Positions 767 through 12,743 of a DNA stretch of 14,368 bases are shown in pieces. How positions within the stretch are numbered: the stretch's first letter is position 1; each line of letters begins with the position of its first letter. Origin of the DNA: a virus (lineage: Duplodnaviria > Heunggongvirae > Uroviricota > Caudoviricetes); IMG/VR virus record IMGVR_UViG_3300023174_009216; one strand, 5' to 3'. Both the position numbers and the translations under genes were made by a program. A model generated the notes under the pieces. The model had not been told where the DNA came from. It saw only the letters and a program-made list of their open reading frames with translations, and made no database searches.

Positions 767-1333
767 TTAAATGATCTCATCTATAATACCATGCTTTAAA
801 GCTTGTTTAGCTGTGAAGAACCAATCCTTTTTTTGCTCATAACACTTATCAAGCTCTGCCTCAGTTAATTTGGTATTTGCTAGTGTATGTGATTCTATAA
901 TCTTTTGTAGTCTCTTAGCTTCAATAACCTCTTCCTCCATATCTTTTAATTTTCCAATAGCTCCAGAGCTAACCTGATGGTACATAAAAGTTGCTTGATC
1001 GTATGCAAATCTTTTGTGTCCAGCTATTGAGATAAGAAATCCGCAGCTCATTGCACATCCGGTAACTATTGTATGAACGGGGGCATTAGACTTGCTAATT
1101 ACACCTAGAAGACCGAGACACTGATAGACATAACCTCCGTAGGAATCTACAAAAATTTCTATAGGACGGGGAGTATACGAAAACCCACTTATCTCTGAAA
1201 GTTTCTTAATATATGAATCATCCTCATTAATCTCCAAAATAGATTTGGTTAATGCGTTCATACTAGTTTGATCTACTTGCTGTGCCAGATATAAAATTCT
1301 TTCTTTTGGAACAGGGATCGGTAAATTAGGCAT
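767..1333 (-). CDS. clpP: ATP-dependent Clp protease proteolytic subunit (ClpP-like, peptidase S14)
   Basis: KERILYL, IFVDSYGG (NSPGG equivalent), AMSCG (Ser107), FMYHQ (His130), KDWFFTAKQALKHGIIDEI (Asp181), numbering on the 199-aa track ORF. Start is either ATG 1333 (MPNLP..., AT-rich leader) or GTG 1366. Confidence 0.93.
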   Translation of the reverse strand: MPNLPIPVPKERILYLAQQVDQTSMNALTKSILEINEDDSYIKKLSEISGFSYTPRPIEIFVDSYGGYVYQCLGLLGVISKSNAPVHTIVTGCAMSCGFLISIAGHKRFAYDQATFMYHQVSSGAIGKLKDMEEEVIEAKRLQKIIESHTLANTKLTEAELDKCYEQKKDWFFTAKQALKHGIIDEII

Positions 1334-1375
1334 ATAAATATTTTGGTTTTTATAGACTATTTCCACATAAGTGTT

Positions 1376-2998
1376 TCAGAGTGTAAACGTTATAACCCTG
1401 TCATAAGCAGTAGCAGTGTACGTTCCTGGAGTTAATGTGGATACACTTATAGCTCTTAATGCTCCACCAGCAAAAGCCTTTGCTGTTATTAAAACTCCTA
1501 ATGAATTTCTGATATAAAGAGTACCTGAAGCATTACTGTTTATATAAATACTTTTATTTGATGTATTATAATAGAAAGATGATATACGAATTGAATCATA
1601 AAGTGCTACATTTATAGGTTTAGTACATCCGTTAAAATCCTTTATCAGTATAGTATAATTGCCAGGAGATAAATTTTTGAATGTGTCTATTGGCTGAAAT
1701 GGCCCATTATTTAAACTACATGTGTATGGTGGTGTTCCTCCTGAAACATTAGGATATATGTAATTCCCCACTGATACCAGATTTGGAGCGGAGCAATCAC
1801 CAAGTGTTACTGCTTGTGATTTTGAACTACCTAATTGTCCGCATGGGGTTTCTCCTCTTACTGTTACTGCTCCTCCTGTATATCCCACGCCAAAGAGCAC
1901 TGTAATAAATGAGCTATCATAATATGCACTAACTATAGATGTGTTTCTAGGAATTGTCCAATGATACATCGAAGTCCTATGTTGTGACGAAGTAGGCTCA
2001 GGTGAAGCTGCAACGAATGTTATATAGTAACCCACACATGGATTATAATATCCAGGACCAGACACAATTGCAATTGGCGTCGGTGGTAATCTTTGTGTGG
2101 TTAAAGCTAAAGTACGGGGTAAACTCACAGAACAGGCATTTACGCTTCTTACAGAAAGAGTATCTTTTACAAAATCTGCGCTAAAATAAAGTCTGATCGC
2201 CGTGTCGTTTGAACCTAAGATTTTTCTTATTGTTCCTGTGGTTGTTGTTATGGACCAAATATAAGATGTTGCATAAGGAACATTTCTTATCATAAATGTG
2301 TCGTATATGACATCACAAACATCGGATGTTGCTACAACGCTAGGAGAGAATGACTTCTGAATTACACCCGGCGTGGAAGCAATCCTTTTGTATATTGTAA
2401 GGGATCTAGCTGACCCTATTGAATTATTATAGCATGCATTGATTGCAGAAACTTTTATAGGCAATGTTCCTGTAAATGAGGAGCTATATTTAACTCTAAT
2501 AAATGTATCAGAATTATTTCCTATTATAGAAGCTCCGCTTGGAACTGTCCATAGATATGATGTTGTATTAGTTGATCTTGTCGTTTTATAAATAAGTGTA
2601 TCGGAAGGAATATAAAGACAAGCATCTGTTGCTCCTGAAATTGTTCCTGGTATTCCTGGTAATGTGGTACTTGATACGACACTCACCACAGAGCTTCCGT
2701 TCATCAATGAGGATTCATTCAATGTGTTTGTTGCCTTAATTGTATAAGTGCCTGCTACAGTCTGATTAGGAAATACTATCTGGCTACCCGTTCCCACTAT
2801 AGGTGTTCCCATAATGATTGTGCCACTTCTAAGCAATTGATATGAAACTCCCGATTGAGATCCTGATAATCCTATTTGAATTCCAGATCCTGTTGCTGAG
2901 CAGTAATATCCACCTCCTGTTATATTATATAGGGTTGGAGGGATTGAAAATGATTTAATAGAAATGGACAATAAGATGAACAATAGAATTTTATACAT
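1376..2998 (-). CDS. Secreted Bacteroidota-type adhesin-like protein: signal peptide, Ig-like domain, 3 PKD-like domains, SprB-like repeat, putative T9SS type-A sorting domain
   Basis: Signal MYKILLFILLSISIKSFS; Ig-like GLSGSQSGVSYQL...GTGSQIVF...AGTYTIKA; three repeats P-x-x-I..C..Y-x-W..N/T-A/P-C; SprB-like VSGGTPPYTCSLNNGPFQ..FKNLSPGNYTILIKDFNGC; C-terminal IRNSLGVLI..ISVSTLTPGTYTA. Confidence 0.8.
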   Translation of the reverse strand: MYKILLFILLSISIKSFSIPPTLYNITGGGYYCSATGSGIQIGLSGSQSGVSYQLLRSGTIIMGTPIVGTGSQIVFPNQTVAGTYTIKATNTLNESSLMNGSSVVSVVSSTTLPGIPGTISGATDACLYIPSDTLIYKTTRSTNTTSYLWTVPSGASIIGNNSDTFIRVKYSSSFTGTLPIKVSAINACYNNSIGSARSLTIYKRIASTPGVIQKSFSPSVVATSDVCDVIYDTFMIRNVPYATSYIWSITTTTGTIRKILGSNDTAIRLYFSADFVKDTLSVRSVNACSVSLPRTLALTTQRLPPTPIAIVSGPGYYNPCVGYYITFVAASPEPTSSQHRTSMYHWTIPRNTSIVSAYYDSSFITVLFGVGYTGGAVTVRGETPCGQLGSSKSQAVTLGDCSAPNLVSVGNYIYPNVSGGTPPYTCSLNNGPFQPIDTFKNLSPGNYTILIKDFNGCTKPINVALYDSIRISSFYYNTSNKSIYINSNASGTLYIRNSLGVLITAKAFAGGALRAISVSTLTPGTYTATAYDRVITFTL

Positions 2999-3017
2999 AT
3001 TTATTTTTATATAAATC

Positions 3018-3025
3018 TATATATT
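3018..3025 (-). promoter_or_regulatory. Candidate phage late promoter AATATATA
   Basis: Motif on the minus strand 19 nt upstream of ATG 2998; would drive adhesin-like gene then clpP. Confidence 0.6.
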
Positions 3026-3068
3026 AATTCTTTCTGTAACTTTTTAGTATTGAAAAAGTATAATATGA

Positions 3069-4103
3069 ATGAACTCAGAGATTGCAAAAGCACTCATTCT
3101 CACCAAGTTATCGAGGATGAAAAGAATGGACGTAGAAAAGAAGGTGTTTGAAATACTACAGGAAAATCCAGATACAGGTAAAGAATTTATTGATGAGTGT
3201 CTTGATCAATATGAAATTCAAAATCCATCTTTATTAGTAAAGGATCTTAATGATATTATTTCTAGAGACACATCTATGGGAATACTATTTCAGGATCTTC
3301 TTGCTGTTACATCAGATAAGATCGGAATGGGGGAAGTACTTCTTTCCCTTTGTATAAAAGATGCTGTCTCTGGCGGAACGGAAGACACCGATATTATACT
3401 CCCAGAGCAAAAGGCCTATGAAGTTAAGAAAATTTCTAAGGGCGGTATTTTTAATTTTTCAGAAAGGTTTACTGAATACAATGATCTAGGATTGATCATG
3501 AATATTGCCATTATGAACTTTGGACCTTTTGAGATATTCCACGGAAAAAATCTTTATACAGTTAGCACCAAAGAGATTAGAACATTTAAAATGCTGATTG
3601 AAAAATTTCTTCTTCCCAACGAAGATGACATTATACCTTTCTATAAGGATCAGTTTGTAGTTAAGATAGATGGCAAGATAAAGATGATTAATGAGGACAG
3701 ATTGGAAAAACCAAATAAGAGAGATAAGGATCTAGAAGCTTATTGTTCAATGTTTAATTTCAAAGAACAAATTTTTAATTCTAAGATTAAGGAAGACACA
3801 ATGAATCTTTTTAGAAAAGGATGTAAAGGAAAGGATTGTACACATAAGATGATTAACAATCTTTTTTCTGTGACTGCACTAAAGCAGATACTTAAAAATA
3901 TAGAAGGTGTGTTTCTAGTTATGCCTGATCTTACCTTTTCATATCTTACTCCACACGGAACACATGATTCACTTTATAACCCGGAGGATGTTTTTTTGTA
4001 TAGCATATCTAGAAATAAAATGAATTTTAAAGGGCCATTTCTTAAATCTTCAAGGGAGGAAAAAACACCAGGAGAATTACCTGATGAATTTAAAAGATTA
4101 TGA
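3069..4103 (+). CDS. Putative PD-(D/E)xK (restriction-endonuclease-fold) nuclease
   Basis: GMGE89..SGGTEDTD108..YE118VK120 has the E..D..ExK spacing of the PD-(D/E)xK core; 344 aa. Confidence 0.6.
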   Translation: MNSEIAKALILTKLSRMKRMDVEKKVFEILQENPDTGKEFIDECLDQYEIQNPSLLVKDLNDIISRDTSMGILFQDLLAVTSDKIGMGEVLLSLCIKDAVSGGTEDTDIILPEQKAYEVKKISKGGIFNFSERFTEYNDLGLIMNIAIMNFGPFEIFHGKNLYTVSTKEIRTFKMLIEKFLLPNEDDIIPFYKDQFVVKIDGKIKMINEDRLEKPNKRDKDLEAYCSMFNFKEQIFNSKIKEDTMNLFRKGCKGKDCTHKMINNLFSVTALKQILKNIEGVFLVMPDLTFSYLTPHGTHDSLYNPEDVFLYSISRNKMNFKGPFLKSSREEKTPGELPDEFKRL

Positions 4104-4262
4104 TTTGATTTTACATTCTGGCCTACCCTCTATCCATTTATAATTTATCATGTAATTAGCTATATAGCTACCAAATTTGTTCATAACTAATTTACGCTGA
4201 ATACCGCAATGCACACAGAAGTTATTAGTGTCCCACTTGTGCTTCTTTTTTACCTTATCCAT
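4098..4262 (-). CDS. Small putative zinc-finger protein, 54 aa (not in ORF track)
   Basis: Manual translation MDKVKKKHKWDTNNFCVHCGIQRKLVMNKFGSYIANYMINYKWIEGRPECKIKS*; starts 3 nt after the stop of 4266..4451 and fills the gap; H8, C16, C19, C50. Confidence 0.75.
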   Translation of the reverse strand: MDKVKKKHKWDTNNFCVHCGIQRKLVMNKFGSYIANYMINYKWIEGRPECKIKS

Positions 4263-4265
4263 ATT

Positions 4266-4451
4266 TTATTTTTTTGAAAGATGAATTATTGTTTCATTAA
4301 TTTCACTAGTCTTTGCATAGAACACAGTCTCTTCTCTCTCGGATAATTCTAGACCTTTCATTATCTTTATAGAGATAGAATATATTATTCTGTCTGGTAT
4401 CTTACCTGTGTCTATAAATTTTTTGTATGCCTTATCTCCTATTAGGCTCAT
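4266..4451 (-). CDS. Hypothetical protein, 61 aa
   Basis: Start overlaps the upstream stop (ATGA coupling at 4448-4451); part of a tightly packed minus-strand cluster. Confidence 0.75.
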   Translation of the reverse strand: MSLIGDKAYKKFIDTGKIPDRIIYSISIKIMKGLELSEREETVFYAKTSEINETIIHLSKK

Positions 4452-4657
4452 TTTTTACAATGTTTGCAATTACCTTTGTGAACTAATACTGTAGCTCTTT
4501 CCCAATCTCCATATAAATATTGACAACTGTCAATGATTATTATTTCTAATGGATCAAGATGACCTTTTATAATATATGTATTGTCTTTTGTCTTTACATT
4601 AGATGGTTCTGAACATCCAACTATGGTTAATAAACCAATGAATAATACTTTTTTCAT
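4448..4657 (-). CDS. Small putative lipoprotein, 69 aa
   Basis: MKK + hydrophobic core + lipobox-like IVG-C15; C-terminal DSCQY...HKGNCKHC motif. Confidence 0.75.
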   Translation of the reverse strand: MKKVLFIGLLTIVGCSEPSNVKTKDNTYIIKGHLDPLEIIIIDSCQYLYGDWERATVLVHKGNCKHCKK

Positions 4658-4659
4658 AA

Positions 4660-4848
4660 TTAATCTTTTTTATCTTTTTCTTCTTGTTCTTCTATTCCTT
4701 TCCCTATATCATATAATGTGATGAGCACAAAAATTATATAGGACACAACAATTATTATATTCCAGGTGGTATCGTGATTGATTGAATTATTATAAATACA
4801 ACAATATGTTAAAAATGTCATTACCCAGAAGAAAATTTTTTTATTCAT
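4660..4848 (-). CDS. Small membrane protein, 62 aa, two predicted TM helices
   Basis: Hydrophobic IFFWVMTFLTYCCIY and WNIIIVVSYIIFVLITLY; charged C-terminal tail. Confidence 0.7.
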   Translation of the reverse strand: MNKKIFFWVMTFLTYCCIYNNSINHDTTWNIIIVVSYIIFVLITLYDIGKGIEEQEEKDKKD

Positions 4849-4851
4849 GCT

Positions 4852-5250
4852 TTATATGTTTTTAAAAAACCCTCTGTACTCTAAAATATTTTCTACTGCT
4901 TCCCAATCAACAAAGGGTCTATCCGAAAGCTGCTCGTCAAAAACTAAGGGACATCCTAATGCTGCATCGTCTATGATGATCTGTCCATAGGCTTTAGGTG
5001 AATCTGTCCACATATGTTGTTCTGGGTTTTTCTGCACACCGTATAACACTATCTTTCTTTCATAAAACCATTCGAGTGCATAATCCAAGAATGGCGGTTC
5101 ATTCTCTCTGTTGCTTCTCATTGTGAAAAGTATAATTCTATGTCCGTTCTCTATTAATCTCTGTAAAACAGGTTCAGCTCCTATATCCTTTCCTGTTAGA
5201 GGGTAGTCATGCGTGACACAGGTTCCGTCAAAATCTAATACTATATCCAT
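4852..5250 (-). CDS. HAD-superfamily hydrolase (BT0820-like phosphatase)
   Basis: Motif I DFDGT, motif II LFTMRS, motif III K (SPKAY), motif IV IIDD; cap-less size of 132 aa. Confidence 0.85.
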   Translation of the reverse strand: MDIVLDFDGTCVTHDYPLTGKDIGAEPVLQRLIENGHRIILFTMRSNRENEPPFLDYALEWFYERKIVLYGVQKNPEQHMWTDSPKAYGQIIIDDAALGCPLVFDEQLSDRPFVDWEAVENILEYRGFFKNI

Positions 5251-5258
5251 GGGGTTAG

Positions 5259-5420
5259 TTATTTCTTTTTTAAGTCTATAAATCCTTTTAATGCTTTGAT
5301 TATCATCTCTACTGTTAAAGGATCTTCATCCGGCCTAGTGTGGAATTGATCTATAGTGTCATTCAGAAACCACTCCAATTCTTCTATGGTAAAATCTTTA
5401 TTATCTTTATTTATATCCAC
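5259..5420 (-). CDS. Hypothetical acidic protein, 53 aa (true start likely GTG 5420)
   Basis: The 239-aa track ORF runs antisense through two real plus-strand genes; only the 3' part MDINKDNKDFTIEELEWFLNDTIDQF...KKK looks protein-like; TAnnTTTG element lies 16 nt upstream. Confidence 0.65.
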   Translation of the reverse strand: MDINKDNKDFTIEELEWFLNDTIDQFHTRPDEDPLTVEMIIKALKGFIDLKKK

Positions 5421-5436
5421 TTCTATTATTTTATTA

Positions 5437-5444
5437 CAAATATA
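5437..5444 (-). promoter_or_regulatory. Bacteroidota housekeeping-sigma -7 element (TATATTTG = TAnnTTTG)
   Basis: Exact match to TAnnTTTG at the head of the 5420->4098 small-gene cluster; -33 TTTG not matched (T-rich only). Confidence 0.5.
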
Positions 5445-5472
5445 AAGAGTAGTAGTGAAAAATAAAAATGTA

Positions 5473-5480
5473 AATATATA
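5473..5480 (+). promoter_or_regulatory. Candidate phage late promoter AATATATA
   Basis: 5 nt upstream of ATG 5486. Confidence 0.6.
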
Positions 5481-5485
5481 GTCTA

Positions 5486-5671
5486 ATGAATCACCTAGAA
5501 AAATACGAAGACTTTTCATATCACTCCGAATTAACAGAGGAAGGAATGGATCTAAAGAAGAAGAGGGAAGACGAGGAAAGATTATTGGGAATGAATAAAT
5601 GTTATAAATGCAAATCTCAAAAAAAGCCAATGTATATGCCATCTCTGAGAAGAATTGAGCGATTAATCTGA
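5486..5671 (+). CDS. Small protein, 61 aa, CTS-like N-terminus and a CxxC
   Basis: MNHLEKYEDF N-terminus; promoter motif directly upstream; CYKC at the start of the C-terminal part. Confidence 0.7.
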   Translation: MNHLEKYEDFSYHSELTEEGMDLKKKREDEERLLGMNKCYKCKSQKKPMYMPSLRRIERLI

Positions 5672-5690
5672 TTTTTTTAAATCTATGATT

Positions 5691-5698
5691 GATATATA
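5691..5698 (+). promoter_or_regulatory. Candidate phage late promoter GATATATA
   Basis: 20 nt upstream of the endolysin ATG 5719. Confidence 0.65.
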
Positions 5699-5718
5699 AA
5701 AAAATAAATATTAATCGT

Positions 5719-6546
5719 ATGTTATTAAAAAATGGGTCAAAAGGCGATGACGTTAAAAAACTACAAGAAAAATTAGGGCTAACCGCTGATGGCGTATTTG
5801 GTCCAGGCACAGAGGCTAAGGTAAAAGCTTGGCAAGCTGCCAATGGCCTAACTGCTGATGGTATAGTTGGCGATGGTACTTGGGGAAAAATGTTTGCAAG
5901 CACCCCTGTAAATCCACAGATCACAGATTCTGTTACATCAGGATCGCCTTTCAAATTAGAAAAGCTTAAAGGACACATTCCAGATTCAGTTATTGCACAG
6001 ATTCCTGATACTGCTTCTAAGTTTGGTATTACAACTCCTTTGAGATTAACCCACCTATTAGCTCAGGCATCTCATGAATCCGGTCATTTTAAGACAACTA
6101 GTGAAAATTTAAATTATTCAGCAGATGGTCTTAAAAAGATATTTCCTAAGTATTTCCCCGGAAATCTAAACGAGTCTTATGCAAGAAATCCACAGAAAAT
6201 TGCAAATAAGGTTTATTCTTCTAGAATGGGAAACGGCGATGAGACTTCGGGAGATGGATGGAAATACAAAGGACGTGGGTATTTACAAACTACGGGAAAG
6301 TCGAATTATTCAGATTTTGATAAAATAGTAGAAGAAAATATTTTAGAAAATCCTGAACTGTTAGAAACTAAATATGCTTTAGCATCCGCAGCTTTCTTTT
6401 TTCAGAAAAACGGGCTTTGGGCAATATGCGATAAAGGTGCAACAGATTCGGTTGTTACCGAAGTTAGTAAAAGAGTTAACGGGGGTACAATAGGATTAAG
6501 TGAAAGATTAAAAGAATTTGCTCATTTTTACGATTTGCTTAAGTAG
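5719..6546 (+). CDS. Modular endolysin: peptidoglycan-binding domain + glycoside hydrolase family 19
   Basis: LKNGSKGDDVKKLQEKLGLTADGVFGPGT..ADGIVGDGTW (PG_binding_1); HLLAQASHESG, ENLNYSA, YKGRGYLQTTGKSNY, VSKRVNGGTIGLSER (GH19). Start corrected from TTG 5689 to ATG 5719. Confidence 0.93.
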   Translation: MLLKNGSKGDDVKKLQEKLGLTADGVFGPGTEAKVKAWQAANGLTADGIVGDGTWGKMFASTPVNPQITDSVTSGSPFKLEKLKGHIPDSVIAQIPDTASKFGITTPLRLTHLLAQASHESGHFKTTSENLNYSADGLKKIFPKYFPGNLNESYARNPQKIANKVYSSRMGNGDETSGDGWKYKGRGYLQTTGKSNYSDFDKIVEENILENPELLETKYALASAAFFFQKNGLWAICDKGATDSVVTEVSKRVNGGTIGLSERLKEFAHFYDLLK

Positions 6547-6560
6547 TATTGGGAAGGAGC

Positions 6561-6592
6561 GAGGTAAATTTATTTAATTTGCCTCACTTTTT
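6561..6592 (+). terminator. Probable intrinsic terminator of the endolysin gene
   Basis: Stem GAGGTAAATT/AATTTGCCTC (10 bp with one G-U), loop TATTT, followed by ACTTTTT. Confidence 0.55.
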
Positions 6593-7389
6593 CTTATGAG
6601 TATTCTATTTTTTACTCTTCTGTTATTTTTTATTCCATTTCCAATTGCTGAGCTAGTAACTCCCAAACAAGAAGCAGCATCTGATATACATTCCCATTCA
6701 TTTATAACATTACCTTCAATATCTAATTCAATAATAGGTTTAAGCTGATTCTTTGATATTCCTCTTCTAACACTTTTTATTCTTTGCCCCTTATATTCAT
6801 AAAACCAAACGTATCCGCCTCCTGTTTGGTTCTCTCCTCTTAAACATTTTCCTATTATCTTCTCTGAACTAAATTTTAATTTTTCTGTTGCATATCTTAT
6901 TGATTTATACTCATCTATAAAATCACCGCTTTCTGCATTATATTGATATATTTTCTTCTTATTAAACCCATCGTGTGTTCTTCCTTTCCATGGGTTAAAG
7001 TTTAGCATTCTTTGACGTGCTATTTCAGCACATTTATTGTATGTTCCATTCTCCGTTCTTTTTTTAACCCCCGAAAAAATGGATTCTTGTGACATTTCAA
7101 ATGTTTTTTCTCCGCCTGTAGTCATATTAGCCAATGGACCTGTACCTAAATCCATCCTTCCATACTTTGAAATAAGTTCTATTTCTTTATTACAGACATC
7201 CCCCCTAGAATCAGATTCAAACACTATTTTAAAATCGAATCCATACTTATTGTTAATATTTTTCCAGTGTGGATTTCTTTTGATTTTACTCTTTGCTCTA
7301 GAATATTGTTGCTTACCAATATTATTTCCTATGCCTACATAAAATACTTCTTCAGTTCCTTTCTTATAATGCTCATATACGTAATACAT
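6574..7389 (-). CDS. Free-standing homing endonuclease: GIY-YIG-like catalytic domain + two NUMOD1 helix-turn-helix repeats
   Basis: YYVYEH..FYVGIG..R..E..LISKYG..LANMTTGGE (GIY-YIG-like); KIYQYNAESGDFIDEYKSIRYA..GYVWFY and PIIELDIEGNVINEWECISDAA (NUMOD1); antisense to both neighbours. Confidence 0.85.
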   Translation of the reverse strand: MYYVYEHYKKGTEEVFYVGIGNNIGKQQYSRAKSKIKRNPHWKNINNKYGFDFKIVFESDSRGDVCNKEIELISKYGRMDLGTGPLANMTTGGEKTFEMSQESIFSGVKKRTENGTYNKCAEIARQRMLNFNPWKGRTHDGFNKKKIYQYNAESGDFIDEYKSIRYATEKLKFSSEKIIGKCLRGENQTGGGYVWFYEYKGQRIKSVRRGISKNQLKPIIELDIEGNVINEWECISDAASCLGVTSSAIGNGIKNNRRVKNRILIRKSEAN

Positions 7390-7393
7390 ACTG

Positions 7394-7401
7394 TATATAT
7401 C
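7394..7401 (-). promoter_or_regulatory. Candidate phage late promoter GATATATA
   Basis: 4 nt upstream of the endonuclease ATG 7389. Confidence 0.55.
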
Positions 7402-7448
7402 CGCATCCTCTAAACTTTTTCATACATAATTTTTTTAGACAATCACAA

Positions 7449-7456
7449 GATATATA
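7449..7456 (+). promoter_or_regulatory. Candidate phage late promoter GATATATA
   Basis: 10 nt upstream of ATG 7467. Confidence 0.65.
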
Positions 7457-7466
7457 ATAAAAAATC

Positions 7467-7592
7467 ATGGCAAAAGCAAAAAGTAAACCAGTAGCAATGA
7501 AAAGCAGAAGATCAGGTATAAAAACATCTAAGCTTATCAAGAAAAATAATGAGATTCTAAAAAGACTTAAGGAAGCTCTTAAAACAAGTTAA
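7467..7592 (+). CDS. Small highly basic protein, 41 aa (not in ORF track)
   Basis: MAKAKSKPVAMKSRRSGIKTSKLIKKNNEILKRLKEALKTS*; 11 K + 3 R vs 2 E; promoter motif upstream, next gene starts 8 nt after the stop. Confidence 0.75.
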   Translation: MAKAKSKPVAMKSRRSGIKTSKLIKKNNEILKRLKEALKTS

Positions 7593-7600
7593 TAAAGGTT

Positions 7601-7873
7601 ATGGAAGAAAAAGCACCAGCTGGATATCTAGAGACCTTCATGGGTAAGCTAAAAGAACAATCGTTCTTAATCATACTAATGATAGGAGTTATTTATGTGC
7701 AAAATCGTCAATTCTCGGAGAGAATAGAGGATCATAAAAAAATAGAGGAAAAACAGCAGCAATATATTAATGACATGATAAAAAATGAAAGAGATATGCT
7801 TATAGAAAGAACTAAATATCTGGTGGAACAGCGGGATAAGTACATAGAAAAATTGCTGAATGAAAGTAGATAA
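7601..7873 (+). CDS. Single-TM, coiled-coil protein, 90 aa (possible lysis accessory protein)
   Basis: TM-like SFLIILMIGVIYV followed by a charged heptad-like C-terminus. Confidence 0.75.
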   Translation: MEEKAPAGYLETFMGKLKEQSFLIILMIGVIYVQNRQFSERIEDHKKIEEKQQQYINDMIKNERDMLIERTKYLVEQRDKYIEKLLNESR

Positions 7874-7878
7874 AAAAT

Positions 7879-7908
7879 AAAAGCCTAACTAAAAATTAGG
7901 CTTTTTTT
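7879..7908 (+). terminator. Rho-independent terminator
   Basis: AAAAGCCTAA-CTAAAAA-TTAGGCTTTT stem-loop with T7 run, right after the stop at 7873. Confidence 0.85.
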
Positions 7909-7948
7909 AATTGTACCATGGATTTAAAAGAATATGGTATAGGGAATG

Positions 7949-7956
7949 AATATATA
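7949..7956 (+). promoter_or_regulatory. Candidate phage late promoter AATATATA
   Basis: Downstream of the terminator, 24 nt upstream of ATG 7981. Confidence 0.6.
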
Positions 7957-7980
7957 AAGGGAATCTAAAAAATAGCAAAA

Positions 7981-10275
7981 ATGAAAAGAGTCCAAAAAAC
8001 TAAAAAAATACTGGAAAATCAGGAGGAAGGACAAGAAATGCCACAAGGTGGAAGTGGCTATGTATATCAGGCAATGGGATTAGACCTAACCCAAATGGCA
8101 AGAGACGGAAAAATTGATCCAGTTGTTGGAAGAGATAATGAACTTGAACAAGTTATCTGGGTATTGAGTAGAAAGATGAAAAATAATCCAGTACTAATAG
8201 GTGAGCCTGGCGTTGGTAAAACAGCAGCTGTAGAAAAGCTAGCCCTTGTTATGATTGGCGATAATTGTCCAGGTTTTTTGGATGGTAAAAAACTTATATC
8301 GGTTGACCTTAATGCAGTATTAGCAGCAGGAGCTTTGGGACAGCTTATACAAGAAGTTGAGGAGCAGGGATTGGTCCTATTCATGGATGAAATACACACT
8401 CTAAAAAAACCAGCTGCCTATGATGCTCTTAAGCCTGCTTTGGCTAGAGGAAAACTAAGCCTGATAGGTGCAACAACTCTAAATGAATTTAGAGAGAGCA
8501 TAGAGAAGGACGGAGCAATGGAAAGAAGATTTCAAAAAATCTATGTGGATGAGCCTAGCTTTGCAGAGTGCTTGGAAATATTACAAGGTATCAAAAGTAA
8601 ATATGAGCAATTTCATAATGTAAGCTATACAGATGATTCAATAGTGTCTTTTATAAAACTCTCTCAGAGATACATTACAGATAGATTCTTACCTGATAAA
8701 GCTATAGATTTAATGGACGAGACTGGTGCTAAGATCCGTATGGCTAGAACTAAGAATCCTAGGGTAATGGAATTAGAAACTGAATTACTAGCTGCCAATA
8801 AAGCTGTTCATGATTTAGCAAAGGCACAAAAATTCGCAGAATCTTACGAGGCTCATGATAGAGTTAAGGAAATACAAGGCGAATTAAAGGCATTAAAAAC
8901 TGATGGTCCAAGAGAGGAACCTATAACAATAACAAAAGAACTATCTGAAGAGGTAGTTGCTAAAAAAACTAGAATACCTGTAGAGAGTATATCCAGAGAT
9001 CAAAAGCAATCTTTAAAAGGATTAGGATCAAGATTAAAAATGGCTGTTATAGGTCAGGATGAAGCGGTAGAAGCAGTTACTCGTATAATAAAAAGAACTA
9101 AGGCAGGTTTAAAAGATCCAAATAGACCAGAAGGTGTGTTTCTTTTCTTAGGACCAACTGGTGTTGGTAAAACACATTTGGTTAAAGAATTAGCTAGAGA
9201 GGTGTTTGGAGATCCTAGTAAAATGTTTAGATTAGATATGAGTGAATTCAGTGAGCCTCATACAGTTTCAAGACTATTTGGTTCGCCTCCAGGATATGTT
9301 GGATATGGTGAGGGAACACAGTTCACAGAGAAGATCAGAAGAAATCCACATTGCATTGTTCTTTTGGATGAACTTGAAAAAGCTCACCCTAAAGTTCTAC
9401 AATCTTGGCTTCAGGTTTTTGAAGATGGACATATGACAGACGGTGAAGGAAGAAAGGTTGATTTCAAAAACACCATTATTATTATGACTTCCAATATTGG
9501 TGCAAGAGCTGAAGAGGAAAAAAGAGCAACAATAGGATTCTCAACAGATGCCTCAAAAGAGGTTCAGAGAATAGATGCAGTAAAAGCAGATCTTAAGAAA
9601 AAATTACCACCCGAATTTATTAACAGAATAGATGAGATTATTATCTTTAAGGCATTAGAGAAAGACAATCTTTTCAAAATTATCGATGGTGAACTAAATA
9701 AGGTTGCAAACAAATTAAAAGAGAGAGAAATTGAATTGACTTGGGGTAGATCCATCAAGGAACTTATCCTAAATCAAGGATATGATAAAGAAATGGGAGC
9801 TAGACCTTTAAGACGTGCAATACAACAGTATATAGAAGATCCTATTGCAAATGCAATTATAGAGGATGAGGTTGGTGATAAAATTCACTTGGAATATGAT
9901 CTATCAAGCAACAAACTAGTAATTAACGGAAATCCCGTTAGTGAAAGCAAAAAACAAAAACTACAAAGGATTTTCAATCTATTTGAATCCGATGATAATA
10001 AAGATAAACCAAAAACTGGAAATCTTATGACCTTTGAAGCATTTGCAGCAGACCCTGCTACTAGACCAATGCCTAGTCCAAATGAGGACCCTGATGTGGA
10101 TCCTGATGTGGAACCATTACCTCCGGTAAAACCAGAAAGACCAGGAGAACCTATAAAAAGACCATCTGTGAATCCAGATCCTCTAGCAAAGAAAAAATCT
10201 TCAGAAGATGACGTGGTTGATAGACTTCTTAAAATACTTAGAGATGAAGACGATTCAATTGAAAATTACATTTAA
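7981..10275 (+). CDS. clpC: Class-1 Clp/Hsp100 AAA+ ATPase, ClpC/ClpE-type (no N-domain, D1 pore loops deleted, IGF loop present, C-terminal extension)
   Basis: Walker A GEPGVGKT and GPTGVGKT; Walker B FMDE and LLDE; ERRF; GYVG D2 pore loop; GARPLRR; short UVR-type M-domain ([14 protein letters not shown]); IGF at 9532-9540. Automated tools may label it ClpA/ClpB. Confidence 0.9.
10087..10113 (+). repeat. 12-bp tandem duplication in the ClpC tail (DPDV-DPDV-E)
   Basis: GACCCTGATGTG GATCCTGATGTG GAA. Confidence 0.8.
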
Positions 10276-10280
10276 CATTT

Positions 10281-11309
10281 ATGAGCGACAAAATAAAAAA
10301 ATTCGATTCTTTTTTTGAGGCAATAAGAGCAAGTGACATGTCTTCCATCCCAAGTGGATATCTTTCAAGTGTCACAGATAGAGCTAAAGAAAGAATGGGA
10401 ATAGCTGGACAGAGAGAAGGAGATCAGAGAGCAATAATGGCAGCAGCTGGTCCTTTAATGTCGGAGCTTGCCAGATCACAGGGATTATCAAGAGGACATG
10501 AAGAACCATTGGAGAAATTAGCTACCAAGGTAATTTATGATTTATATAAGCCCCTTATAGATTTCTATAACATCAAGCTTGATATAAAATTTGCTAGTGG
10601 CTCTGATATGAGAAGAATGATAGATCAGGGATACCAAAAAAATAAAAGAGACGAACCTGTAAATCCAAGTCAAACTCCTATTGTGAAAGCTAGAGGAGCA
10701 GATTTTTCCATGCTGATACACGAAGCAGTTAAAGGGATCTGGCTAGTGCTATCCCTGAAGGGAATTCCTAAGGATAAAGCTATGGCTAAAGATCTAGCTT
10801 CTAAGTTTGGACTAAGAGATGAACCAGATGATTGGAAATATGGGCCAGAGATTGCAGCTGATCTTAGAGATTTTGTGAACGAGAATCCAAAGGTAGATTC
10901 ATATGCTAATGTTAGAGAGGAGCTTTGGATGTTTATGGTTGATTCTAGAAAAGTTCCTGATGAAGAGTTTTTAGAACTTATGAAAGGTATATTGGCTAAG
11001 ACCCCAGAGGCTAGAAAAAAATTAGATGGCTATATAGATATTGTGATTAGGGGAATAAAAGAGAGGGACGAGTATCTAAGAAAGATGGAGGAGTATAAAA
11101 TACAGATGGCGGAATACGAGAAAAGAAAAGCAGAGTATCTAGAGCGTAAAAAAACAAAGGGACCAGCGATTACTCCTAGGGAGGTTAAACCTGAAAAGAC
11201 CATTGAATATTCTCAAATGACACAAAGAGAATTAAATGACGAACTTAATAAAGCTTTAGATAGAAGAGATTCCGAAAAGATTGCGGAGATTTCAAAGTAT
11301 TTACAATAA
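10281..11309 (+). CDS. Uncharacterised 342-aa protein: CTS-like N-terminus, LIHEAVKG motif, coiled coil, C-terminal UVR-like hairpin
   Basis: Starts 5 nt after the clpC stop; MSDKIKKFDSFFEA; ERDEYLRKMEEYK..ERKK coil; ELNDELNKALDRRDSEKIAEISKYLQ. Confidence 0.85.
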   Translation: MSDKIKKFDSFFEAIRASDMSSIPSGYLSSVTDRAKERMGIAGQREGDQRAIMAAAGPLMSELARSQGLSRGHEEPLEKLATKVIYDLYKPLIDFYNIKLDIKFASGSDMRRMIDQGYQKNKRDEPVNPSQTPIVKARGADFSMLIHEAVKGIWLVLSLKGIPKDKAMAKDLASKFGLRDEPDDWKYGPEIAADLRDFVNENPKVDSYANVREELWMFMVDSRKVPDEEFLELMKGILAKTPEARKKLDGYIDIVIRGIKERDEYLRKMEEYKIQMAEYEKRKAEYLERKKTKGPAITPREVKPEKTIEYSQMTQRELNDELNKALDRRDSEKIAEISKYLQ

Positions 11310-11319
11310 AAATTAAGAA

Positions 11320-11586
11320 ATGACACAGGAAGAAAAAAGAAAATTCATCTATTTAATAGTTCAGGGTGAAGCTAAAAATACCAAGCACATACTCCAAATG
11401 CAAGAAGTAAGAGAAGGCCTTATTGAAATTATGGGTCAGGAAAAAGGACAGCAACTTTTTAGATCTCTAGACACCCTTGCTAAATCTGCAGATAAACTAG
11501 ACTGGTTAGAAAATCCAGAATCAAGAGGAATGCAAATGCAACATGGGAATGCTTTTGGCGGAGCAGTAGATATAGAATGGGAGTAA
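11320..11586 (+). CDS. Hypothetical protein, 88 aa, third gene of the clpC operon
   Basis: ATG 10 nt after the upstream stop; helical, KRKFIYLIVQGEAKNTKH motif. Confidence 0.8.
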   Translation: MTQEEKRKFIYLIVQGEAKNTKHILQMQEVREGLIEIMGQEKGQQLFRSLDTLAKSADKLDWLENPESRGMQMQHGNAFGGAVDIEWE

Positions 11587-11612: not shown

Positions 11613-11620
11613 GATATATA
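11613..11620 (+). promoter_or_regulatory. Candidate phage late promoter GATATATA
   Basis: 16 nt upstream of ATG 11637. Confidence 0.65.
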
Positions 11621-11636
11621 AAAATAAAAGAAATTT

Positions 11637-12052: not shown

Positions 12053-12076
12053 AAAAAAAGCCCGTAAAGGGCTTTT
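12053..12076 (-). terminator. Rho-independent terminator (possibly bidirectional)
   Basis: AAAAGCCC-GTAAA-GGGCTTTT; T7 tail on the minus strand, 24 nt after the stop at 12101. Confidence 0.85.
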
Positions 12077-12100: not shown

Positions 12101-12697
12101 TTATTCAGCTATATAACCTGCTATTCTTTGAACAGATTCTATTACATCATGTCCTATCTCCTCTATATTTTCTATGGGGTGTTTAATCGTAGAGAACTGA
12201 AGGAATCCTAATAGATTCCCATTAAGTGATCTCATAGGAACTGTTGCCAGTTGTAATATTCCTTGCTCCTCTATTTTTTCTCTCATATAATCTAAAACTG
12301 GATTGTCTCCATTAACAAAGAAGTAATCCTTCTCGCTCATATGCTTCATTAGTGCAGGATGCTCTGTAACAAATATATTTTGGTTTAACTCCTTAACTCT
12401 TTCAATACCAGGTGAGATTGCCTCGTAGGTGAGAGAAAACTTTTTCATTGCTATTCCATTGAAAAACTTACCTCCATTATGAAATTGATAGATCGCTGCC
12501 CTGTCAAAATCATATTGTTTAATTAGGGCGTCAAGAAACTCCTGGATTTCCATCATTATGTTAACGTCGTCTGGAGTTATCTGCTCTTCCTTAGCTCTGT
12601 CTTTCTCTTTCTTCATTGTGTCTAATCTATGCTTAGACCAAACAGTAATCAGCGTAACCACTACTGTAGTGATAGATGTTATTAGGGTATTATCCAT
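12101..12697 (-). CDS. TM + GAF-like domain protein; T4 gpT-like holin candidate, 198 aa
   Basis: Start corrected to ATG 12697 (promoter motif 22 nt upstream); TM LITSITTVVVTLITVW; GAF-like FDRAAIYQFHNGG ... LATVPMRSLNGNLLGFLQFS; no kinase or cyclase output domain. Confidence 0.65.
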   Translation of the reverse strand: MDNTLITSITTVVVTLITVWSKHRLDTMKKEKDRAKEEQITPDDVNIMMEIQEFLDALIKQYDFDRAAIYQFHNGGKFFNGIAMKKFSLTYEAISPGIERVKELNQNIFVTEHPALMKHMSEKDYFFVNGDNPVLDYMREKIEEQGILQLATVPMRSLNGNLLGFLQFSTIKHPIENIEEIGHDVIESVQRIAGYIAE

Positions 12698-12717
12698 TAC
12701 TTTCTTTTCATTTTTTG

Positions 12718-12727
12718 TATATATATC
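12718..12727. promoter_or_regulatory. Bidirectional late-promoter candidate (TATATATATC)
   Basis: Minus strand GATATATA (12727-12720) faces ATG 12697; plus strand ATATATA (12719-12725) faces ATG 12744. Confidence 0.55.
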
Positions 12728-12743
12728 CATATCAAAATCAAAG

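Follow-up and report, generated by a model that had tools for sequence, protein, structure and literature searches.

Surveys of jumbo phages list ClpP, ClpA, and ClpX among the encoded proteins (Iyer et al. 2021, PMC7824862). The freshwater Bacteroidota bS21 huge phages carry genes annotated as "Clp protease" and "chaperone ATPase" (PMC9723584), and a near-core ClpA-like gene was described in the "Moraphages" (PMC12619734). In phage G, gp257 and gp258 are an adjacent ClpP and ClpX, and both were detected by virion mass spectrometry (PMC12484599). For such components, a part in taking over the host or in the biology of the virion has been suggested (PMC12484599, PMC7824862, PMC9723584). Phage proteins may also act on the Clp system of the host, as does gp53 of SPO1, an adaptor-like modulator of host ClpCP (PMC6873191), and the internal proteins of T4 carry capsid-targeting sequences (PMC3012670). 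Although they appear in surveys of jumbo phages, phage-encoded Clp components are not known to have been dissected. Here, we analyzed a 14,368-nucleotide stretch of caudoviricete DNA (IMG/VR record IMGVR_UViG_3300023174_009216; "the window" below, 14.4 kb in all, with a GC content of ~33%), which encodes a ClpP-family peptidase and, 6.6 kb away, a ClpC-type unfoldase with a fused C-terminal module (ClpC::X), followed by the proteins Y and Z. In the reading that we prefer, with a probability of about 0.5, ClpC::X, Y, and Z form a unit in which a Y/Z-tethered unfoldase would dock on a host or other ClpP, and the ClpP of the window is a separate paralogue.

The window is a piece of a large uncultured phage genome. 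Metagenomic contigs of up to 117.7 kb hold the same DNA, and the contigs that carry relatives of its proteins measure 100–640 kb; a megablast search of the whole window against the phage collection returned no near-identical DNA. In the following, P0001 denotes the ClpP type of the window, and P0003 denotes Y, its 342-aa protein.

Architecture of the ClpC::X unfoldase

ClpC::X (7981..10275, + strand) is a 764-aa ClpC-type double-ring AAA+ unfoldase without an N-domain and with a C-terminal X module, and it matched the Pfam families AAA_2, AAA_lid_9, and ClpB_D2-small. Its best solved-structure match was Bacillus subtilis ClpC (E 1e-167), onto which residues 29–649 aligned in one continuous stretch (ClpC residues 163–804), whereas the alignment with ClpB fell into two broken stretches. 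Identity to the Bacillus and Staphylococcus ClpCs was ~46% across 620 residues. The Walker A/B pairs of both rings and the GYVG loop of D2 are kept, as are the ERRF arginine finger, sensor 2, and the M-domain. The last is a short coiled coil of the ClpC type (residues ~255–310; 8743..8910, +), across which the alignment with ClpC runs on and that with ClpB breaks in two. There was no Pfam match to Clp_N in ClpC::X; 28 residues precede D1, and the alignment begins at ClpC residue 163.

The first ring differs from that of other ClpCs. In the D1 region at 8305..8448 (+), in-frame deletions have removed both pore loops (loop 1, KYRGxFEER; loop 2, GAGxxxGxxDA), and the Walker B motif DEIH is kept, as seen in the alignment with B. 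subtilis ClpC and the ClpCs of LR756502 and G013. KYRG was looked for in P0002, P0236, P0237, P0238, and the G019 protein and was present in none of them. The loss of both loops is common to all ClpC::X orthologues but does not occur in the unfused phage ClpCs (LR756502 and G013), which have neither an N-domain nor a tail and in which both D1 loops are present. The first-pass annotation of this DNA had described the ATPase as remodelled, and the absence of the N-domain and of both D1 pore loops together with the added tail bears this out.

In D2, the tripeptide I518-G519-F520 (9532..9540, +) aligned on the VGF loop by which B. subtilis ClpC docks on ClpP, so that a two-ring ATPase with an IGF loop does lie 6.6 kb from clpP, as had been annotated. 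A docking loop of the form [ILV]GF was found in eight of nine related phage ClpCs, and the ninth has IGGF. The tripeptide is retained in all five ClpC::X lineages, in one of them with an additional Gly. These alignments support the assignment of ClpC::X, made in the same annotation, to the ClpP-coupling type of ATPase.

Orthologues of the same architecture were found in four other lineages at 50–73% identity: L006 at 73% and L001/L003 at 52% (four-sequence alignment), G017–G019 at 50% with a protein of 821 aa, and L056/L057 (P0236). In a search of ClpC::X against 1.8 billion cluster representatives, matches across nearly the full query, with the tail, were confined to the top two (70% and 52% identity). 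They were followed by four N-domain-less phage-like relatives. The other 143 matches all scored lower; most of these begin well inside the protein, as an N-domain would lead one to expect, and a few begin near the N terminus.

Two further observations were made on phage ClpC genes. Three relatives of 1,022–1,088 aa contain intein-like insertions located exactly in the Walker A P-loop, in D2 for P0239 and P0241 and in D1 for P0243, and the insertions all close with ...THN, after which comes T or S. In the 465-kb record G021 (IMGVR_UViG_3300023174_000033), a ClpC-like gene appears as two pieces ~49 kb apart on opposite strands (169925–171091 and 120909–121709), one of which corresponds to D1 (query 30–398) and the other to D2 (query 397–659, with one in-frame TGA).

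The X, Y, and Z module

ClpC::X continues for ~115 residues beyond the D2-small domain. A linker of ~35 residues with a second L-F-E motif (9929–10035, +) leads into the X module (residues ~686–764; 10036..10275, +), in which an F-E-A-F motif and a linker rich in Pro are joined by an amphipathic helix at the very end. With ClpC::X as the query against the 635-kb phage LR745206, residues 708–764 matched a small ORF directly upstream of a P0003 homologue. The last ~80 residues of ClpC::X align with stand-alone X proteins of ~80–190 aa, which share the F-E-x-F motif, the Pro-rich linker, and the terminal amphipathic helix. A word-indexed search with the ClpC tail alone found a single relative. 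Stand-alone X genes lie directly upstream of a Y-family gene in L008/L009, L010, L012, LR756502, LR745206, and G041. Because X immediately precedes Y in these genomes, the ancestral order is, as judged from gene arrangement, X-Y, with ClpC having joined X in the clade of the window. Such a fusion provides support of the Rosetta-stone type for a functional link between ClpC and X-Y. The gene order ClpC::X-Y-Z is kept at 46–73% identity in five lineages (the window, L006, L001/L003, L056/L057, and G017–G019). In the tail of the G019 protein (L138), the Pro-rich linker has grown into (PLPK/PTPK) repeats with a poly-acidic run after them, and the amphipathic helix is conserved; given this expanded linker and conserved terminal helix, the linker of the tail appears free to vary while both ends are kept.

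Y (P0003; 10281..11309, +) starts 5 nt past the stop codon of ClpC::X and is a mostly helical protein of 342 aa, assigned to a huge-phage family from 113 homologues, their alignment, and a structure model. These homologues are all metagenomic or hypothetical and unannotated, and they fall into a short form of ~340 aa and a long form of ~510–540 aa. A profile scan placed the family at no fewer than 104 loci in IMG/VR; a single-sequence IMG/VR scan with P0003 gave no match. No Pfam, PHROG, or NCBIfam family matched Y at E up to 0.01. In the model (pLDDT 80–82), the last ~30 residues form a helix-turn-helix hairpin (helices 315–328 and 331–341; 11208–11306), which resembled YfhH weakly (Z 5.0, 28% identity across 46 residues). 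Among 41 Y homologues, the weak Pfam matches were IDEAL in 9 (best E 0.004) and UVR in 2 (best E 0.009), and the UVR profile (PF02151) gave no match to P0003 itself. Of the annotated operonic partner with a UVR-like hairpin, the 5-nt spacing and the hairpin as modelled were upheld; the label UVR-like describes the hairpin fairly, with membership in the UVR family no more than possible.

Fold searches with the full Y model (PDB Foldseek, VIA wide, and atlas) and with the model of its core returned nothing significant, and in an ESM Atlas feature search of Y, every match stayed below 0.9 (unnamed clusters and LPD-domain clusters). In the member-wise scan of the 41 homologues, MecA, McsA-McsB, and ClpS were not among the 25 most-matched Pfam families. 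The proposal that P0003 is an adaptor therefore finds no backing in a relation to MecA, McsA, or ClpS, and Y genes often lie far from ClpC; a functional link to ClpC is supported by the X fusion, on which the first-pass annotation had not drawn. The residues H147-E148-x-x-K151 and E181 are invariant in the Y family. When the protein was checked as a zincin, its motif was HExxK, not HExxH. Peptidases of the M32 and M3 families matched the full model weakly (Z 4.2–4.9 across ~170–190 residues), and these matches disappeared with the core-domain model, save for 2ejq at Z 3.7. The invariant H-E-x-x-K...E could form a zincin-like core, which we offer as a lead only.

Z (11320..11586, +) is an 88-aa protein with a QGEAKNTK motif, and in the alignment it equals a domain inserted mid-protein in the long form of Y. 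The insert of the long form is ~170 residues in length and lies at the poorly modelled loop 119–129 of P0003; its first ~90 residues, which include the invariant QGEAKNTK, are homologous to Z. Downstream of every short-form Y examined (L006, L001, L012, L056, and G019), there is a gene of ~90 aa. Going by this homology, short Y and Z together are the split form of one long-form protein. The Z domain sits in the middle of the long forms P0052, P0063, and P0091. Either it was cut out of such a protein to become a separate gene downstream of Y, or a gene of that kind was its source. A complex prediction for the X tail with Y and Z scored 0.26, against a mark of 0.32, which speaks neither for nor against a complex.

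The distribution of Y in phage genomes follows that of Clp components. A canonical Clp component (ClpC and/or canonical ClpP) was present in 27 of 31 records with Y compared with 2 of 11 without it (Fisher p 7e-5, a value that ignores kinship and completeness). In two lineages (L008/L009 and G041), X-Y has a canonical-type ClpP gene no more than ~1 kb away. Together, the ClpC::X fusion, this co-occurrence, and the canonical ClpPs near X-Y support a functional tie between the X-Y(-Z) module and the Clp system, with Y/Z as a possible adaptor, regulator, or client. Within the Y-selected records, ClpC and canonical ClpP were uncorrelated (both in 9, ClpC only in 7, ClpP only in 8, neither in 3; p 0.45), and for this reason, phage ClpC and phage ClpP are each apparently able to work with host partners.

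The truncated ClpP of the window

The clpP gene of the window (767..1366, − strand) encodes a divergent, N-terminally truncated ClpP-family serine peptidase (Pfam CLP_protease, PF00574; MEROPS S14). Its probable start at position 1333, codon M12, gives a protein of 188 aa, as in its homologues. The PF00574 score was 89.5 bits against a cut-off of 20.2. Ser107 (codon 1046–1048), His130 (977–979), and Asp181 (824–826, all on the − strand) aligned on the catalytic residues of solved ClpPs, within the motifs AMSCG, MYHQ, and KKDWF, respectively, confirming the earlier description of an intact Ser-His-Asp triad. The NCBIfam ClpP equivalogs all scored far under their cut-offs (46–78 bits versus 228–361). 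Homologues of the P0001 type numbered more than 1,300, and the best 120 of them are 59–85% identical to the window protein and 156–199 aa long, mostly 187–188 aa.

Gating of the ClpP pore and coupling of the ring to its ATPase depend on the axial loops at the N terminus and on helix A. The window protein has neither; it begins 9 residues before the KERILYL segment, and positions 1 to ~40 of the PF00574 model are unmatched in the P0001 type. Canonical phage ClpPs aligned with it have ~45–70 additional N-terminal residues, and relative to the canonical type in related huge phages, it shows a 14-residue insert. In the hydrophobic pocket by which ClpP receives IGF loops (E. coli ClpP numbering), the residues corresponding to F112 and I90 are conserved, Phe takes the place of Y62, and Ser takes that of F82. 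The view that this ClpP is ready for coupling to an ATPase runs against the missing N-terminal gate and helix A. By these alignments, it is an independent paralogue, catalytically intact by its triad and widely conserved among large phages.

The first-pass annotation had joined this ClpP, ClpC::X, and P0003 into one self-contained protease, in which ClpC would dock through its IGF loop and P0003 would be an adaptor like MecA or McsA. All of these features are present: the three genes are intact within 10.5 kb, the same gene-start motif stands before both units, the IGF loop is conserved, and in the ClpP both the triad and the handle region are intact. Moreover, a canonical ClpP is not known so far in this incompletely sequenced phage. 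However, comparison across genomes gave no support for one unit, and the missing axial loops and helix A and the Ser at the F82-equivalent position also speak against it. The P0001-type ClpP was found in 17 large-phage records, 12 of them without a phage ClpC and 5 with one, and all 5 of the latter also carry a canonical ClpP (180–260 bits). Records with the truncated ClpP but without ClpC include G005 and G008, estimated at 91–93% complete, and LR756500, a chromosome-level sequence of 462 kb. In G013 and G014, no more than ~200 nt separate ClpC from the canonical ClpP, and the P0001 type is 17–20 kb off. Phage-encoded Clp pairs as such, which the annotation had assumed, do occur in this phage group in the form of these ClpC-ClpP operons. 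Because the P0001 type mostly occurs without ClpC and ClpC adjoins the canonical ClpP instead, the pairing of this ClpP with this ClpC fails on co-occurrence, a check that the annotation itself had proposed.

The lineages of ClpC::X and Y gave a similar result. None of the 27 Y-bearing IMG/VR records contained a P0001-type ClpP. No ClpP gene of any type was found in the ClpC::X lineage G017–G019 (record estimated to be up to 85% complete), and G019 keeps the IGF docking loop despite this; none was found in the fragments G001–G003 either, which are just 4–37% complete and of which G001 is also a ClpC::X lineage. The clpP gene is not near ClpC::X in L006, L056, or L001. We consider a self-contained protease built from the three window genes unlikely.

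It was also considered whether the window ClpP is a head-maturation (prohead) protease. Its best PHROG match was phrog_94, "head maturation protease" (2e-28), and its truncated N terminus is like that of the ClpP-related prohead proteases (NF045542). The score against NF045542 was, however, 65 bits, under the cut-off of 120, and neither portal or capsid neighbors nor a scaffold or capsid fusion of clpP was found in the window, L016, or L017. In other contigs, P0001-type clpP genes are flanked by genes for replication and miscellaneous functions and not by capsid genes. A separate protein with a T4 gp21-like Peptidase_S77 domain is encoded by four related huge phages with complete genomes; Peptidase_S78, the HK97-type protease, was not found in the relatives. 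In addition, in freshwater huge phages of the bS21 type, a prohead protease adjoins the major capsid protein (PMC9723584). Given the noncapsid neighbors and the separate gp21-like protease in relatives, a head-maturation role of this ClpP is very improbable, in agreement with the original placement of the gene outside a capsid context.

A functional tie between clpP and the PKD_6 repeat gene upstream of it (1376–2998, −), which ends its reading frame 9 nt before clpP begins, was rejected, as the neighborhood is not conserved. In G004, G005, G006, and G015, two separate ClpP matches each were detected at ~75–108 bits, well under the canonical 180–260 bits. One of each pair matches from model position ~30–45, like the window clpP, and the other often from 8–16; a hetero-oligomeric ClpP ring is possible in records of this kind.

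A gene-start motif shared by many genes

The motif RATATATAV occurs in eight copies in the window compared with 2.9 expected, and only 1 of 200 shuffles contained as many as eight. The copies lie at 320–328, 3017–3025 (−), 5473–5481, 5691–5699, 7393–7401 (−), 7449–7457, 7949–7957, and 11613–11621, each of them with a same-strand start codon 4–24 nt downstream. The copy before ClpC::X, AATATATAA (7949..7957, +), follows a terminator-like hairpin at 7879–7905, and the copy before the PKD_6-clpP unit is AATATATAG (3017..3025, −). Other copies precede, among others, the endolysin and HNH genes. RATATATAV is a gene-start motif in general use in this phage and no signature joining the Clp loci. The earlier observation of a shared motif before both loci is correct, although the motif precedes eight genes and is not specific to Clp. 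Some copies are so near the ATG that they may serve the initiation of translation just as plausibly as they may act as promoters. In a sigma-70 consensus scan of the window, promoter-like sites were no more frequent than in shuffled sequence.

Leader-like N termini

A short K/F-rich N terminus followed by an (L/I/F)xE site was found on Y, on stand-alone X, and on ClpC::X orthologues (KILE, KVLE, LLE, ILE, or LFE), and some related ClpCs begin with MKTFK.F. These N termini resemble the capsid-targeting leader sequence of T4. In the ClpC tail, the leader-like motif lies inside the protein and not at its N terminus. As a separate observation, canonical-type phage ClpPs (L021–L024; L008, 8530–9213; L053, 708–1556; L139, 1592–2317) carry N-terminal extensions of 40–60 residues that open with [DE]F[RKQ][KN][FY], similar to the leaders of X and Y.

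These features bear on the alternative that ClpC::X acts without ClpP, as a late-expressed virion or assembly chaperone or as packaged cargo, and either loads or unfolds head-internal proteins or is injected. The leader-like N termini with their (L/I/F)xE sites, the MKTFK.F starts of related ClpCs, and the gp21-like protease of related phages all fit such a role; RATATATAV also precedes the endolysin gene, a typical late gene, and several nearly complete ClpC-bearing records are without any phage ClpP. The presence of ClpP and ClpX in virions of phage G (PMC12484599) makes a packaged or injected Clp unfoldase a possibility. However, the motif in the ClpC tail is internal, and the leader role in these phages is putative. 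Retention of [ILV]GF at ~50% sequence divergence speaks for docking on ClpP. On balance, we find a ClpP-free function doubtful. A combined scenario may also be envisaged, in which the leader-like N termini, shared in relatives by the canonical phage ClpPs, would cause the Clp unfoldase and its cofactors to be head-packaged and injected with the DNA as cargo. The unfoldase, lacking an N-domain and a D1 grip, would capture host ClpP by the IGF loop at the very start of infection and would redirect it through Y/Z against host defence or regulatory proteins; this we rate as quite improbable.

Other features of the window

Among genes typical of large phages, the window further encodes an endolysin with a PG_binding_1 domain (5719–6546, +), an HNH/NUMOD homing endonuclease (6574–7389), and numerous small ORFs without a family match. 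A 239-aa ORF at 5259–5978 (−) overlaps the endolysin frame (5689–6546, +) by ~290 nt. The gene calls on the identical contig leave it out and place the endolysin start at 5719; for this reason, the 239-aa ORF is probably not a gene. A 132-aa protein (4852–5250, −) matched phrog_1238, "phosphoheptose isomerase" (6e-29), and has an N-terminal DxD motif, as in HAD phosphatases. A 209-aa protein (12101–12730, −), whose gene is preceded by a strong terminator-like hairpin at 12056–12076, is hydrophobic in its N-terminal segment and matched a GAF-like domain weakly (22.3 bits, slightly below the cut-off).

Discussion

In the reading that we favor, the X tail would tether a Y/Z complex to the ClpC hexamer, and the tethered Y/Z would be either a built-in cofactor, that is, a specificity adaptor or regulator, or a dedicated client. 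The D1 ring, with its ATPase motifs kept and both substrate-gripping pore loops lost, may no longer pull on substrate, and the D2 ring, with its GYVG motor loop, would thread substrate into a ClpP ring contacted by way of the IGF loops. The ClpP of the window need not be this ring, which most likely comes from the host or is a canonical phage ClpP encoded at another site.

Several points weigh against this model. In many phages, X and Y lie tens to hundreds of kb from ClpC or occur without it, and this argues that Y has a function independent of phage ClpC. "Adaptor" is a candidate label, drawn from gene context, for a protein without a recognizable fold or family, and the binding of X to Y is likewise predicted from gene fusion and gene order. 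Given the leader-like N termini on X, Y, ClpC, and canonical phage ClpPs, the link between X and Y could reflect shared packaging rather than regulation of ClpC. The co-occurrence statistics are soft, as the records are related to one another phylogenetically and are uneven in completeness. Finally, the genome of the window is incomplete, and the window ClpP may yet be the partner.

The locus provides a natural ClpC that has lost the adaptor-binding N-domain and the D1 pore loops, keeps the docking loop, and has a phage protein fused to it as a putative tether for the conserved pair Y/Z. It offers a system for asking how an Hsp100 works with a nongripping first ring, how the choice of substrate moves from the N-domain to a C-terminal tether, and whether large phages take over host ClpP rather than bring a full protease. 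It also gives a first functional context to the widespread Y family, with its at least 104 IMG/VR loci, and sets a very common truncated phage ClpP paralogue apart from the canonical phage ClpPs. In the literature searched, we found no description of the D1 pore-loop deletion or the ClpC::X fusion, nor of the X-Y-Z module, its split and long forms, or the distinction between truncated and canonical phage ClpP.

Among known systems, ClpC::X is closest to the ClpC of the ClpC-ClpP machines of B. subtilis and Staphylococcus aureus with MecA (PDB 3j3s, 3pxi, and 6em8). It has the same two AAA+ rings and short M-domain, the same GYVG loop in D2, and a [V/I]GF docking loop at the equal position. In contrast to that ClpC, it is without Clp_N, the docking site for MecA and phospho-arginine, and without the D1 pore loops, and its C-terminal extension of ~115 residues is a separate protein in fused form. 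Its neighbor gene is unrelated to MecA, McsA, and McsB.

Like G013, G014, phage G, and the jumbo phages with Clp pairs, the phage described here is a large phage with Clp components of its own, and ClpC::X shares the absence of the N-domain with the ClpCs of the G013/G014-type pairs. In those other pairs, however, the ClpP is canonical and full-length, and in G013, G014, and phage G, it adjoins the ATPase; the ClpC of the G013-type pairs has its D1 pore loops and no X tail. The role proposed for Y/Z resembles that of SPO1 gp53, in that a nonprotease phage protein would redirect a Clp unfoldase or protease. SPO1 gp53 acts on host ClpC, whereas here the phage supplies the unfoldase, and Y/Z are unrelated to gp53 in sequence. 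The K/F-rich leaders and (L/I/F)xE-type sites on X, Y, and the ClpC N terminus are similar to the T4 capsid-targeting sequences, and relatives of the phage have a gp21-like protease; one difference from T4 is the copy located inside ClpC, in its tail, and packaging and cleavage are putative here. In p97/Cdc48 and NSF, one AAA+ ring has nucleotide motifs but no grip on substrate, and the other ring translocates. A similar split between the two rings is predicted for ClpC::X, which belongs to another AAA+ clade and in which this arrangement would have arisen by a clean deletion of the D1 pore loops.

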